A DNA stretch of 13,427 nt from a virus (IMGVR_UViG_2529292909_000008:1-13427); one strand, 5' to 3'; shown: positions 7,633 through 9,100, counted from the stretch's first letter. Program-made: numbers and translations. Notes: generated by a model not told the origin, from the sequence alone.

Positions 7633-7720
7633 GGCCGCATAACCTCCTGCTTTGTTGATGATATCTTTCTCGCCTAATCGATCGACAAAAACGATCGATT
7701 CGATGTGTTTAATTGATACA
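7633..7720 (-). promoter_or_regulatory. com-mom upstream control region with paired GATC (Dam) sites
   Basis: GATC at 7680-7683 and 7693-7696 inside a short repeat (CGATCGAcaaaaaCGATCGA), 48-66 bp upstream of the com start codon. No strong -35 hexamer is visible, consistent with an activator-dependent promoter as described for Mu Pmom. Confidence 0.35.
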
Positions 7721-7746
7721 ACAAATAGATTGAAAAGTCATCAACA

Positions 7747-8046
7747 ATGATTCAGGGAGGTGATTATTTACTAAAAGAAAACGAAGACTTAGGGTGTGAA
7801 AACGATCATAAAATGATCATTTTATTGACTTTTTATCCAGTGAAGGTAGGATCGCGCGCATATGTAGTATGTTTCAAATCAACAGGATACTACATAAAAG
7901 GGAAACCCAGCATAGCTGGAACTATGCTGGGTCAATCTGTAAAAACTTGCATCAATGCTTTACTTCGAGCTCGTGGCGTATCCTATGATATTCCCCGGTC
8001 TCCTGTAAAGCAGAGATATATCTGTTCAGGCAGGAAAAATGGATAA
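7747..8046 (+). CDS. Hypothetical protein (doubtful ORF in an AT-rich regulatory-looking region)
   Basis: 99-codon ORF whose stop overlaps the next start (ATGGATAA). It contains a perfect 10-bp hairpin (7906-7931), several GATC sites and a sigma70-like promoter, so it may be 5' leader rather than coding. Confidence 0.2.
   Translation: MIQGGDYLLKENEDLGCENDHKMIILLTFYPVKVGSRAYVVCFKSTGYYIKGKPSIAGTMLGQSVKTCINALLRARGVSYDIPRSPVKQRYICSGRKNG
7825..7852 (+). promoter_or_regulatory. Candidate sigma70 promoter (TTGACT, 16-bp spacer, TAGGAT) reading toward the 8039-8245 ORF
   Basis: TTGACT at 7825-7830 and TAGGAT at 7847-7852; seen by eye only. Confidence 0.3.
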
Positions 8047-8245
8047 ACTAACCACAGACCCAAAGTTACAGGCTGCGCGAATTGCAGCTGATATTACAAT
8101 TGCAGCAATGACATCCACCAGGGGTAACTTTACCTCTTTTCATACAGCAGGTGATTCATCCGCTATGCAGTTATGGAACGCGTGCTTTTCTGATGTAATT
8201 CGTGCAATCAGCGAGTCAGTTGACCTTCGCGAACCGCAAAAATAG
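8039..8245 (+). CDS. Hypothetical small protein (68 aa), prophage cargo
   Basis: ATG with AGGA Shine-Dalgarno 5-6 nt upstream; unbiased-looking composition (MDKLTTDPKLQAARIAADITIAAMTSTRG...). No family recognised. Confidence 0.45.
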   Translation: MDKLTTDPKLQAARIAADITIAAMTSTRGNFTSFHTAGDSSAMQLWNACFSDVIRAISESVDLREPQK

Positions 8246-8408
8246 CGCATCTTGGGGTACACAGGATCTGCATAGCTATCCACATTGCGGTGGCGAAGTT
8301 TCGATCCTGTAATGTATCTTCATCAAGTCCTGAACGTAGCGCATTGATAATTTCCGCGCTTAATCTTTCTAGGCCTTTGGTATCAGGTTGCTTTTTATTC
8401 TTGTCCAT
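8208..8408 (-). CDS. Hypothetical small protein (66 aa), prophage cargo; convergent with and overlapping the 8039-8245 ORF by 38 bp
   Basis: Internal ATG at 8408 is preceded by GAGGA; the track ORF 8208-8444 starts 12 codons earlier without a ribosome-binding site. Protein MDKNKKQPDTKGLERLSAEIINALRSGLDEDTLQ... Confidence 0.4.
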   Translation of the reverse strand: MDKNKKQPDTKGLERLSAEIINALRSGLDEDTLQDRNFATAMWIAMQILCTPRCAIFAVREGQLTR

Positions 8409-8440
8409 GATTATTGTCCTCTGATTGGTATATAAAGCGC

Positions 8441-8476
8441 CCATGAAAATAAAACCGACAGGAGAAACTGCCGGTT
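8441..8476 (-). terminator. Rho-independent terminator candidate after the 8484-8738 ORF
   Basis: Minus-strand hairpin (AACCGGCAG / CUGUCGGUU, one mismatch, 6-nt loop) followed by UUAUUUUC. Confidence 0.45.
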
Positions 8477-8483
8477 TGTATTG

Positions 8484-8738
8484 TTACATCATGGTGCTGT
8501 CAGTTCCGGGCTGAGCCGGTTCTGGTTGCTCTGGCTGCGCGTCGGTTTTCGGTTCATTATCAGCATCACTGGCCGCTGCTGCTGGCCCAATAAGTTTTTC
8601 CAGCACCTCATCAACGTAAGTGTCGATTTGTGCCTCAAAATCCTTGCGGACCTGCGCTTTCAGCAACTTATTTACTTCACCGGAATACAGTGCCTGTTTT
8701 ACCAGGTCTTCAGTGACGGTGCCTTTAATTTCTGGCAT
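8484..8738 (-). CDS. Hypothetical acidic protein (84 aa) with a Pro/Glu/Ala-rich C-terminal tail, prophage cargo
   Basis: Near-consensus Shine-Dalgarno (TAAGGAGGAT) 6 nt before the ATG; the ORF is followed by a terminator hairpin. Confidence 0.5.
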   Translation of the reverse strand: MPEIKGTVTEDLVKQALYSGEVNKLLKAQVRKDFEAQIDTYVDEVLEKLIGPAAAASDADNEPKTDAQPEQPEPAQPGTDSTMM

Positions 8739-8773
8739 GTATATCCTCCTTATGCGGGAATAAAGCCCTGCAA

Positions 8774-8956
8774 TCAGGGCTGGGTCGGGTCTTTTGGGAG
8801 CGGAGTTACCTGCGCTGTTTTACTGAGTTTTTCAGCTGCTGCGTCCTCAATTTTGCGGCGAACATAATTTCTGATGGCCTTATAACCACCACTCACCAGA
8901 TATAACGCACATACTGCCGTGCAGAAATACAATAAAATAAGCTGTAAAAATGTCAT
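8774..8956 (-). CDS. Hypothetical small membrane protein (60 aa, one predicted transmembrane helix), prophage cargo
   Basis: GGGAGGG Shine-Dalgarno before the ATG at 8956; hydrophobic N-terminus (MTFLQLILLYFCTAVCALYLVSGG) followed by a basic segment. The track ORF starts 4 codons upstream. Confidence 0.4.
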   Translation of the reverse strand: MTFLQLILLYFCTAVCALYLVSGGYKAIRNYVRRKIEDAAAEKLSKTAQVTPLPKDPTQP

Positions 8957-8971
8957 TATCCCTCCCAATTA

Positions 8972-8998
8972 TTGACATGGTGTTGACACCGGTAATAT
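8972..8998 (+). promoter_or_regulatory. Candidate sigma70 promoter (TTGACA, 15-bp spacer, TAATAT; second TTGACA at 8983-8988)
   Basis: Consensus -35 hexamer and near-consensus -10 on the plus strand, in an intergenic gap between minus-strand genes. Confidence 0.35.
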
Positions 8999-9052
8999 CT
9001 GTTAGGTAAAAAGGTGCACTGCATTTTTTGCTTTGGATATAACGATCTTTTT

Positions 9053-9093
9053 GCCGCCGGTTTCTTGTTTTCCCTTACCGGCGGCATTTTTTT
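9053..9093 (+). terminator. Strong Rho-independent terminator (plus strand)
   Basis: GCCGCCGGT, 15-nt loop, ACCGGCGGC, then A followed by seven T (9087-9093). Confidence 0.6.
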
Positions 9094-9100
9094 ATCCTGC

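Follow-up and report, generated by a model that had tools for sequence, protein, structure and literature searches.

Sequence comparison resolves the gin-com interval of a Mu-like Escherichia coli prophage into a mosaic of borrowed phage pieces

Five described systems bear on the DNA considered here. In phage Mu, gin and com are separated by only 95 bp, and mom expression without regulation is harmful to the host. Sp18, a Mu-like prophage of E. coli O157:H7 Sakai (ECs_4992-ECs_4998), carries gin, an esterase gene, DUF1378, DUF826, a plus-strand gene, com and mom. In the lambdoid late region, exemplified by phage 933W, the order is nanS-p (L0105), DUF1378, DUF826 and the S holin gene, and ORFs for DUF826 and DUF1378 between nanS-p and S have been reported (PMC10462455). 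PasA and PasC, small RNAs of EPEC E2348/69 (Pearl Mizrahi et al. 2021; Zhu, Shabalina and Storz 2026; coordinates in PMC8550237 Table S6), lie, like EcOnc51/52 of EHEC, antisense immediately past a sialate esterase gene. Lastly, the interval between gp27 (DUF1804) and the terminase gene in Klebsiella, Citrobacter and Salmonella Mu-like prophages and in Dickeya-type phages holds a gene of the family represented here by ORF66, often with a convergent gene of the ORF68 family.

We compared these systems with positions 7633-9100 of the window, by which we mean the whole 13,427-nt stretch of viral DNA analysed (IMGVR_UViG_2529292909_000008:1-13427). The prophage is Mu-like, from E. coli, and its right end lies at window position 6613, inside yaiW. 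Its gin-com gap is 3610 bp, which bears out the initial annotation's view that extra DNA has been added relative to Mu, and the five ORFs that it had placed in the interval were all confirmed at the coordinates below.

9101-11157, minus strand: SASA/DUF6645 (NanS-p-type) sialate O-acetylesterase, first gene of the borrowed lambdoid cassette, outside the interval
8983-9093, plus strand: candidate small RNA gene, a promoter and terminator unit antisense between the esterase stop codon (9101-9103) and the DUF1378 start
8774-8956, minus strand: DUF1378 protein, 60 aa, pI 9.3
8484-8738, minus strand: DUF826 protein, 84 aa
8452-8477, minus strand: intrinsic terminator closing the esterase-DUF1378-DUF826 unit (10-bp stem, U tail, z -4.8)
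8018-8454, no strand: replacement segment of 437 bp relative to Sp18-type prophages, from BLAST breakpoints against locus L006
8208-8408, minus strand: ORF66, small four-helix protein of an unnamed family, from remote homologues, profile search and an AF2 model
8039-8245, plus strand: ORF68, small helical protein of an unnamed family (67-88 aa), from shared motifs and an HMM of distant partners
7747-8046, plus strand: ORF99, truncated remnant (92 native and 7 foreign codons) of a 154-aa gene, from phrog_26524 and BLAST
7904-7933, minus strand: intrinsic terminator (13-bp perfect stem, U-rich tail to about 7894, -21.5 kcal/mol, z -5.7)
7633-7746, minus strand: com-mom upstream control region, from alignment with Mu 35639-35799 and three other Mu-like prophages

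Judged by its sequence, the interval is a mosaic of borrowed phage pieces, some of them already catalogued, and not one undescribed island. The full explanation that we favor, at a probability of roughly 0.7, is that four independently derived pieces, with the roles proposed below, are stacked between gin and the mom promoter. Piece A (9101-8452, together with the esterase gene upstream) would come from the late operon of Stx-type lambdoid phages. Piece B (8454-8018) would be a cassette of two genes that was copied out of another Mu-like phage, from between gp27 and the terminase gene. Piece C (8017-7747) is presented as what is left of a zinc-ribbon gene, a dead 5' portion with the 3' portion overwritten by piece B, and piece D (7746-7633) as the Dam-sensitive control region of com-mom. 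Five genes without identity thereby give way to a concrete map, and the part that is still uncharacterised shrinks to 437 bp.

The initial annotation had recognized none of the encoded proteins. The 60-aa product is a DUF1378 protein, the 84-aa product a DUF826 protein, the 99-aa ORF a remnant of a 154-aa gene, and the 66-aa product a member of a late-region family of Mu-like phages. The superinfection-exclusion, anti-defence or toxin-antitoxin functions that it had raised found no backing, with 0 of the 5 ORFs matching such families, and searches of Pfam, NCBIfam, PHROGs, PADLOC, PDB and BFVD matched none of the proteins to a functional family or to a fold. The left ~115 bp of its interval (7633-7746) are mom regulatory DNA and not cargo, and it had overlooked the plus-strand feature at 8983-9093. 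The site does behave as an accessory slot: the contents between com and DUF826 differ among Mu-like prophages at different chromosomal sites, with other occupants in the M18, SW070917 and O157 prophages, and equivalent slots of related phages hold defence-like genes.

Composition and signals agreed with the earlier description in part. The interval is AT-rich compared with the esterase flank (39-48% versus 53-58% GC) but not compared with com/mom (43-48%). Shine-Dalgarno motifs precede four of the five ORFs (AAGGAGG for DUF826, GGGAGGG for DUF1378, GAGGA 9 nt before the ATG of ORF66 and AGGA 5 nt before that of ORF68), but the 99-aa ORF has none. The idea that each ORF has its own promoter is unsupported because sigma-70-like sites are no commoner than in shuffled sequence (3 found, 3.7 expected), and the promoter scan yielded no convincing sigma-70 promoter for ORF66, ORF68 or the remnant ORF. 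Two strong intrinsic terminators lie on the minus strand, but a "terminator-like" palindrome at 7676-7700 on the plus strand is instead the mom GATC cluster. Nothing in the complete window matched an Rfam family at E<=1.

Piece D parallels the gin-com-mom junction of Mu. The com and mom genes are homologous, and the Dam (GATC) cluster upstream of com, where the palindrome 7676-7700 contains sites at 7680 and 7693, can be aligned to the three-GATC region of Mu. The last codons of a Mu-type gin survive as the relic ATCAATTAA (7710-7718, minus strand). The two junctions differ in that only two GATC sites are present here, against three in Mu, and in that the cluster lies nearer to the com ATG here. 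The minus-strand terminators at 8477-8452 and 7933-7904 would insulate the com-mom operon from upstream read-through; the latter, which sits antisense within the 99-aa remnant, is the last barrier ahead of the mom promoter. The former is common to Sp18-type prophages, in which homology resumes at 8455. The 79 bp surrounding the latter (7889-7967) are tandemly duplicated in four relatives (L002, L003, L004 and L007).

Piece C is best understood by reference to Sp18, which shares the window's backbone and gene order and is ~97% identical to it in com, in mom and over 270 nt from the start of the plus-strand gene. In Sp18 that gene (ECs_4996) is intact and encodes 154 aa, an N-terminal phrog_26524 domain followed by a C-terminal CPAC...CPAC zinc ribbon. 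The 99-aa ORF matches phrog_26524 strongly (E 1e-43), though over profile positions 1-90 of 135 only, and a full-length match to phrog_26524/ECs_4996 failed: Sp18-type homology stops at 8017 and the ribbon is missing. PGAP labels the ORF a pseudogene in all window-type relatives, and comparison with the Sp18 allele gave three synonymous and five non-synonymous codon changes, with no purifying selection seen. Sp18 differs from the window in two further respects, namely that it lacks the ORF66/ORF68 cassette and that in DNA its alleles of the esterase, DUF1378 and DUF826 genes reach only 70-78% identity to those of the window. The remnant stop codon overlaps the ORF68 start (ATGGATAA). A simple frameshift fusion of ORF99 with ORF68 was considered and rejected on two grounds: similarity to the intact gene goes no further than 8017, and ORF68 has homologues of its own.

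The 437-bp segment that forms piece B contains ORF66 and ORF68, whose 3' ends overlap by 38 bp (8208-8245) as first described. At least 80% of window positions 7720-8480 was found in just 15 of 5426 complete E. coli genomes, and the arrangement occurs as in the window in eight IMG/VR contigs. Both ORFs are 90-100% identical among prophages whose DUF1378/DUF826 alleles range from 61 to 100%, which favors a composite origin. Direct homologue searches with ORF66 and ORF68 returned near-identical E. coli sequences only; nothing significant emerged for either from Pfam, NCBIfam, PHROGs or PADLOC, and a tblastn search with ORF66 of 50,697 phage records gave no match. Remote homologues of ORF66, at 36-42% identity, surfaced solely in an exhaustive phmmer search and a follow-up profile search, the latter yielding 18 clusters; a scan of GTDB genomes with the ORF66 profile gave no confirmed locus. 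The family is marked by an invariant F..AMW.AMQ..C.P..A motif. The AF2 model of ORF66 has a pLDDT of 80 and matched no PDB or BFVD fold at E<1; that of ORF68 (pLDDT 64) is of too low confidence for a fold search. ORF68 shares an N-terminal motif, LT(T/I)DQ(K/R)(I/L)(Q/E)xARI, and a C-terminal one, W/F..F..V...V..ES.D, with its partners in six loci (L013, L019, L025, L026, L028 and L042), and an HMM built from five distant partners scores it at 18.3 bits (single-comparison E 1.3e-7).

On an alternative reading, everything from the DUF826 terminator to the mom promoter (7747-8451) would be decaying passenger DNA, with ORF66, ORF68 and ORF99 no longer expressed or needed here. This would accord with the truncation of ORF99 and its lack of purifying selection, with the failure to find a promoter, with the rarity of the variant (15/5426 genomes) and with the 79-bp duplication, the nonsense allele and the deletion variant seen among relatives. 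We nevertheless regard it as unlikely. Between lineages ~13% apart in DNA, the codon changes in ORF66 number 12 synonymous and 3 non-synonymous (p 4e-5); all copies examined have ORF66 intact, and the Shine-Dalgarno motifs of both ORF66 and ORF68 have been kept. For ORF68 the non-overlapping part has seven synonymous and four non-synonymous changes (p 0.015) and the whole ORF seven of each, so that constraint is weak; broken alleles comprise one nonsense mutation (L002) and one 5' deletion (L038).

At the opposite end of the interval, the plus-strand unit at 8983-9093 is probably a small RNA gene with the position and architecture of PasA and PasC, according to our comparative analysis. A -35 element, TTGACA (8983-8988), and a -10 element, TAAAAA (9007-9012), predict a 5' end at ~9019; a terminator stem at 9052-9086 (fold z -4.4) and a U7 run at 9087-9093 give a transcript of ~75 nt. 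This promoter-terminator combination occurs once in the window and in 0 of 300 shuffles. PasA and PasC likewise have a TTGACA -35, an A-rich -10, a transcript of ~75-85 nt and a GC-rich terminator whose U tract abuts the esterase stop codon; PasC ends 1 nt after that codon, and the window unit occupies 9019-9093(+) against a stop at 9101-9103(-). Across 10 aligned units, which include PasA/PasC of EPEC E2348/69 and units of 933W, Sp12 and Sp18, TTGAC is invariant (10/10), and the spacing, the A-rich -10 and the terminator align too. Compensatory change is seen at five of the eight terminator stem pairs. Applied to PasA and PasC, the promoter rule used here places their 5' ends within 1 nt of the published ones. 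EcOnc37, an Hfq-crosslinked RNA (Tree et al.), lies on the same strand, close to where the Sp18 esterase gene ends; its placement, at 5.08 Mb, is approximate, the coordinates being offset by about -20 from NC_002695.2 at 2.24 Mb against a total genome-version difference of +128.

The RNA bodies, in contrast, have no detectable similarity, and the PasA seed GCCAGCACCU is replaced here by GCCGCCGGUU. BLAST of PasA and PasC against the window gave chance matches only, none to the small-RNA body. A covariance model from seven non-window Pas-like units reached 15.5 bits at the locus (E ~0.4) and does not discriminate, because a decoy inside the esterase gene scored 16.2 bits. This lack of a PasA/PasC sequence signal in both searches, together with a -10 element that lacks the final T and a unit that the promoter scan did not list, would suit a hairpin (9052-9086) that acts only as a terminator blocking antisense transcription into the esterase gene, or as a stabilizer of the esterase mRNA 3' end, with no discrete small RNA made. 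That reading also strikes us as unlikely, given that TTGAC is held at a fixed spacing from an A-rich -10 in all 10 units, two of them experimentally validated small RNAs, that the promoter rule reproduces mapped 5' ends and that the unit never arises in shuffles. As a small RNA gene, the unit would give the lysogen an Hfq-type RNA of ~75 nt, like PasA and PasC from the same position in lambdoid prophages. If the candidate RNA is real, Pas-type small RNA loci extend beyond lambdoid prophages.

The protein-coding part of piece A has clear relatives. The DUF1378 product matches PF07125 at 109.4 bits (cut-off 25; residues 1-58 of a 59-position profile) and phrog_494 at E 1e-32, and is 53% identical to an unannotated ORF of 933W; as had been predicted for a single-helix membrane protein, it contains one hydrophobic helix (residues 3-21, KD19 2.27), with a basic helix after it. 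Of the 309 phage records in which DUF1378 was found, nearly all are of Stx or lambdoid phages. The DUF826 product matches PF05696 at 56.2 bits (cut-off 25; residues 1-55) and phrog_311 at E 1e-28, with 38% identity to its 933W homologue. It is acidic, as originally described (pI 4.2); the N-terminal half is helical and the acidic tail is rich in proline. Substitutions in both genes follow a coding-type pattern, those in DUF826 falling mostly at third codon positions. A sequence search of the PDB with both products found no match.

Gene order points to the same lambdoid source. DUF1378 lies directly downstream of the SASA/NanS-p esterase gene here, the typical context of this family in enterobacterial prophages, and the order esterase-DUF1378-DUF826, followed by a holin gene, is found in 933W, an O157 lambdoid prophage and a pig-isolate prophage (L029, L030); among lambdoid phages, Stx phages included, the two genes regularly come after the NanS-p-type esterase gene and before the holin gene. 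The window shares with these late regions the three genes, their order and the antisense promoter-hairpin unit past the esterase stop codon. The surroundings differ: in lambdoid phages the genes belong to a Q-dependent late operon with lysis genes next, whereas here they sit within the gin-com region of a transposable phage and a terminator comes next. The window's esterase also differs from the lambdoid one in its N-terminal domain. In the window the esterase gene is split by two 1-nt insertions (9435 and 9668); in NCCP15648 it is intact, at 2055 bp. In most variants, the esterase allele changes together with the cassette.

A different function for the two small proteins, as lysis accessories such as pinholin modulators that became stranded from their partner genes in the Mu-like prophage, seems rather improbable. 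It would explain why both lie directly upstream of a class II holin gene in lambdoid phages, and many lysis regulators are, like DUF1378, small proteins that cross the membrane once. Against this, both genes stay with the esterase, under coding constraint and far from any holin, in every Mu-like prophage examined (with alleles diverging to ~40-70% protein identity), and the E2348/69 prophages keep esterase and holin genes although both DUF genes are absent. The latter prophages also show that the trio is not obligatory, since an esterase occurs there without DUF1378 or DUF826. We favor a lambdoid late-region cassette, composed of the esterase, DUF1378, DUF826 and the probable Pas-like small RNA, that has been adopted by transposable phages; the esterase, DUF1378 and DUF826 would be transcribed together in the lytic phase, and both small proteins would act with or alongside the esterase.

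The origin of piece B can be traced in the same manner. Remote homologues of both ORF66 and ORF68 occur in Klebsiella and Citrobacter Mu-like prophages, Dickeya-type phages and metagenomic contigs, and a check of the gene pair across Mu-like prophages, which the initial annotation had proposed, revealed that a convergent pair with overlapping 3' ends recurs between gp27 (DUF1804) and the large terminase gene. There the overlap is 23-26 nt, in the same antisense register as in the window. The differences are of place and sequence: the pair lies inside the late morphogenetic operon in those phages and is displaced to a com-proximal slot here, and the proteins are ~35-45% identical. Homology to ordinary Mu late proteins, which the initial annotation held would count against undescribed cargo, is thus closely approached by ORF66, a member of a small late-region family of Mu-like phages. 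ORF66 is normally a gene of the late operon, and ORF68 is a small gene that converges on it and overlaps it at the 3' end. Folding of the overlap, in search of a bidirectional terminator, gave no significant structure; without a terminator between the two genes, each transcript is antisense to the other gene. Expression may be mutually exclusive, with ORF68 expressed in the lysogen and ORF66 late. Two unnamed families whose convergent overlap is conserved across Enterobacterales offer a compact test case for convergent-transcription regulation in prophage accessory slots.

That ORF66 and ORF68 form an autonomous two-gene module for exclusion, defence or toxin-antidote activity, the slot's real functional cargo, with output set by convergent transcription and the 3'-3' RNA overlap, is very improbable: the pair is found again, with its overlap register unchanged, in distant Mu-like prophages, was transferred as a minimal unit of 437 bp, shows synonymous excess in both ORFs and has a partner position that in relatives may hold DUF4145 genes matching the PD-T7-4 defence model, but in three of four Dickeya-type loci in IMG/VR the ORF66-family gene is partnerless and translationally coupled to gp27, which suggests an ordinary late gene with ORF68 as a separable insert, and neither protein resembles a known toxin or antitoxin or has type-I-like hydrophobicity (maximum KD19 0.64 for ORF68 and 1.53 for ORF66), while ORF68 is broken in some alleles. 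As regards type I and II toxin-antitoxin systems, the genes are convergent and match nothing in Pfam, NCBIfam or PADLOC. A bolder version is more doubtful still, namely that the pair is the founding example of a conserved convergent, 3'-overlapping module of Mu-like phages in which the overlap would act as a switch, late ORF66 transcription silencing a lysogen-expressed ORF68, and ORF68, as a new kind of miniature protein, would act in exclusion or defence from the hotspot that PD-T7-4-like genes also occupy. Neither the DUF4145 domain nor the PADLOC PD-T7-4 profile matched ORF68 or its homologues. In relatives, the partner slot is alternatively filled by DUF4145/PD-T7-4-like defence genes (E 4e-5 to 6e-6), marking the gp27-terminase interval of Mu-like phages as a hotspot with defence-like genes.

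In the window, E. coli chromosome meets the right end of a minus-strand Mu-like prophage; the genes are as follows.

Chromosomal part: IS1 fragment, autotransporter gene, ampH, sbmA, and yaiW, cut after 55 codons
6741-7478: mom, a gene of the minus-strand prophage
7432-7632: com, prophage gene
9101-11157: esterase gene of the prophage
11243-11815: gin, followed by the invertible tail-fibre segment

The phage end was placed at window position 6613 because homology to the same prophage at other chromosomal sites (in elfC, an ABC transporter gene, torZ, cho, frvX and sorM) starts exactly there. 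In the window the prophage interrupts yaiW (6450-6617), and other genes are hit in other strains; insertion in different genes is consistent with transposition. From the gin stop to the com start there are 3610 bp in the window versus 95 bp in Mu, so the premise of the initial annotation, that extra DNA separates these genes, is correct. Its further reading of 7633-9100 as a single cargo island of unrecognizable genes was not supported. Four pieces of separate origin are stacked in the interval: mom control DNA, the stub of a dead gene, a convergent pair of Mu type that has been displaced, and the tail end of a lambdoid esterase cassette, in which a candidate antisense small RNA is embedded. 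The anatomy and origins of these pieces are well supported; the functions that we infer for them are cassette co-transcription, a small RNA of the lysogen, a convergent switch and insulation of mom.

All five previously predicted ORFs were recovered:

7747-8046 (+): ORF99, 99 aa
8039-8245 (+): ORF68, 68 aa
8208-8408 (-): ORF66, 66 aa
8484-8738 (-): DUF826 gene, 84 aa
8774-8956 (-): DUF1378 gene, 60 aa

The 38-bp overlap of ORF66 and ORF68, the acidity of the 84-aa protein and the single transmembrane-type helix of the 60-aa protein, which is also basic, were confirmed as well. The claims made for expression signals and base composition held only in part. Good Shine-Dalgarno motifs are present at four of the ORFs but not at ORF99, and there are two strong minus-strand terminators, at 8477-8452 and 7933-7904, but the plus-strand 'terminator-like' palindrome at 7676-7700 is a GATC cluster. 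GC content is lower than in the esterase gene, in keeping with the reported AT-richness, but similar to that of com and mom. Separate promoters for the ORFs were not borne out, since promoter-like sites are no commoner than in shuffled sequence, and none of the five could be linked to a toxin-antitoxin, anti-defence or exclusion function.

The left edge, 7633-7746, aligns with the Mu region upstream of com, GATC cluster included, and keeps a relic of the last Mu gin codons, ATCAATTAA; it is not cargo. GATC sites lie at 7680 and 7693 in the mom upstream region. In Mu, Dam methylation and OxyR act on the mom promoter at this cluster; the binding sites in the window are putative. The minus-strand terminators may insulate mom. 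In the Mu-like prophage of E. coli SW070917, a DNA cytosine methyltransferase gene (comparison locus L011, 2207-3413) follows com in place of mom; it encodes a different modification enzyme, under apparently the same Com-type control.

The match of ORF99 to phrog_26524 is limited to profile positions 1-90 of 135. In O157 prophages resembling Sp18, the Mu-like prophage of E. coli O157:H7 Sakai (a type found in about 200 genomes), an intact gene of 154 aa begins at the same start, and its product has a CPAC...CPAC zinc ribbon at the C terminus. Homology to this gene stops at window position 8017, the final seven codons of ORF99 being foreign, and ORF99 differs from the Sp18 allele by three synonymous and five non-synonymous changes. 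PGAP designates it a pseudogene in all window-type relatives, and ORF99 is a remnant. Some relatives carry a 79-bp tandem duplication of 7889-7967. It is present in one cassette lineage (L002, L003, L004 and L007) and takes in the terminator hairpin with the 13-bp stem, so that the terminator ahead of the mom promoter is doubled. Other prophages have in this slot the intact 154-aa gene, a different 175-aa zinc-ribbon and transmembrane protein, or frameshifted versions, a variability that supports the earlier designation of the region as an accessory slot. The 175-aa protein of E. coli M18 (L010 3812-4339), which combines a zinc ribbon at its N terminus with a predicted membrane helix, has no relationship to the Sp18 gene.

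The segment with the convergent pair (8018-8454, 437 bp) stands in place of 203 bp of Sp18-type sequence. Of 5426 complete E. coli genomes, 15 contain at least 80% of 7720-8480, and the com-proximal arrangement of the pair occurs in eight IMG/VR contigs. Direct searches with ORF66 or ORF68 returned near-identical copies only. An exhaustive phmmer search yielded three proteins of 64-78 aa that are 36-42% identical to ORF66, and a profile search extended the family to 18 clusters from E. coli, Salmonella, Dickeya, Klebsiella and Citrobacter, with an invariant F..AMW.AMQ..C.P..A motif. Every remote ORF66 homologue examined lies in a Mu-like prophage, directly after gp27 (DUF1804); the large terminase and Mu portal genes come after it, and the gp27 stop codon often overlaps the start of the homologue.

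Conservation of the pair across Mu-like prophages, which the initial annotation had proposed as a check, was observed in six independent contexts (L013, L019-21, L025, L026/27, L028 and L042), where the ORF66-family gene is followed by a convergent gene with which it overlaps by 23-26 nt. The partner genes are homologues of ORF68: they share N-terminal LT(T/I)DQ(K/R)(I/L)(Q/E)xARI and C-terminal ...ES.D motifs, and ORF68 is matched by an HMM from five of them (single-comparison E 1.3e-7). The overlap keeps one antisense register across the window and the distant loci. Between the two E. coli cassette lineages, ORF66 shows 12 synonymous and 3 non-synonymous codon changes (p = 4e-5), and ORF68 shows 7 of each overall, or 7 and 4 outside the overlap (p = 0.015), together with one nonsense allele and one deletion variant. 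Both ORFs are thus real genes, and their families are unnamed. ORF66 has the look of an ordinary small late gene in one Mu-like phage group, and ORF68 that of one among several alternative inserts adjoining it; in the window lineage the two were copied jointly into the com-proximal slot.

Elsewhere among the relatives, the place of the convergent partner is taken by DUF4145 proteins or an unrelated 166-aa protein, or is empty. The DUF4145 proteins match the PADLOC PD-T7-4 defence model (E 4e-5 to 6e-6). Their genes, in Mu-like prophages of Salmonella, Klebsiella michiganensis and a metagenomic contig (L014 5259-6116, L016 5204-5707, L024 3261-3698), lie convergent and directly after the ORF66-family gene in the gp27-terminase interval, a placement that suggests an unreported defence hotspot in transposable phages.

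No terminator separates ORF66 from ORF68. Past ORF66, minus-strand transcription would next meet a terminator at 7933-7904, and the ORF66 transcript would thus be antisense to the whole of ORF68. The ORF68 transcript would in turn be antisense to ORF66, and mutually exclusive expression through such a convergent switch is therefore plausible. ORF66 is modelled with confidence (pLDDT 80) as a four-helix bundle, for which no significant structural neighbour was found; the ORF68 model is of low confidence.

The tandem minus-strand genes belong to Pfam DUF1378 (109 bits) and DUF826 (56 bits), and to PHROGs 494 and 311. In Stx phage 933W, the nanS-p esterase gene is followed by an unannotated DUF1378 ORF (53% identical), a DUF826 ORF (38% identical) and holin S; two lambdoid prophages have the same order, then a class II holin, YdfR and lysozyme. 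A survey of Stx2a phages noted DUF826 and DUF1378 ORFs between nanS-p and S (PMC10462455), and DUF1378 is present in 309 phage records, nearly all Stx or lambdoid. Because the order esterase, DUF1378, DUF826 on the minus strand of the window is identical, both genes belong with the esterase, in a cassette taken from a lambdoid late region. Among Mu-like prophages with ~96% identical com and mom, the alleles of this cassette diverge by 20-30% at the DNA level (cassette protein identities, 61-100%), which indicates repeated allele exchange. Substitutions in DUF1378 and DUF826 fall mostly at third codon positions, so both are under coding constraint; neither had a solved structure or a defence-family match. 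The three genes may be co-transcribed.

Five single-base indels (9435, 9668, 11588, 11648 and 12110) set the window apart from the 99.8%-identical NCCP15648 prophage. Two divide the esterase gene into ORFs of 499 and 163 aa, and a compensating pair puts about 20 gin codons out of frame across the catalytic domain; the five reflect either real pseudogenisation or assembly errors. The NCCP15648 prophage also has a RefSeq 'tRNA-OTHER' within its head-morphogenesis region (L023 2230-2309; NZ_CP009050.1 1076229-1076308).

Between the esterase stop (9101-9103) and the DUF1378 start (8956), on the opposite strand, lies a feature at 8983-9093 that the initial annotation overlooked:

8983-8988 (+): -35 element, TTGACA
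Spacer (+): 18 nt between the -35 and -10 elements
9007-9012 (+): -10 element, TAAAAA
9052-9086 (+): 10-bp GC-rich hairpin, then seven U

The unit has a fold z of -4.4, and its combination of promoter and terminator occurs once in the window and in 0 of 300 shuffles. The EPEC small RNAs PasA and PasC were validated by Northern blot and Hfq RIL-seq (PMC8550237; coordinates in its Table S6). Their genes lie antisense directly after the sialate esterase gene of lambdoid prophages, PasC ending 1 nt past the esterase stop codon. Ten units were aligned, from the window, three near relatives, two further Mu-like variants and 933W, along with PasA, PasC and another E2348/69 unit: all have TTGAC, its spacing to an A-rich -10 element is conserved, as is the terminator, and five of eight stem pairs show compensatory change. 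A promoter-based rule recovered the published 5' ends of PasA and PasC within 1 nt and predicts a start at ~9019 in the window.

The RNA body has no BLAST similarity to PasA or PasC, the candidate has no Rfam match, and a covariance model built on seven units other than that of the window gives the locus 15.5 bits (E about 0.4), which does not exceed its score for a decoy within the esterase gene. For these reasons we consider 8983-9093 a Pas-like candidate by position and architecture, rather than a demonstrated family member; it may be expressed in the lysogen. The model fails to tell the two apart: the decoy, a hairpin-plus-U stretch antisense within the esterase coding region (window 10066-10146(+); L010 6055-6135), receives its highest scores (16-21 bits, E 0.02-0.3), probably by chance.

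An RNA crosslinked to Hfq, EcOnc37, is listed for Sp18 by Tree et al. (2014); it lies antisense to the esterase, near the 3' end of that gene. Sp18 has its own promoter-terminator unit antisense after the esterase gene (L045 3977-4070), at NC_002695.2 5077476-5077569(-); EcOnc37 is placed at 5077340-5077410 in the coordinates of Tree et al., which refer to a different genome version. Two tandem Pas-type units follow the esterase gene in each of E2348/69 PP2 (L031 2365-2440) and Sakai Sp12 (L046 1120-1183): PasA, and another that lies closer to the esterase and has a TTGACA promoter to itself. The 'minor' PasA form of 236 nt that has been reported stops at the terminator of this proximal unit.
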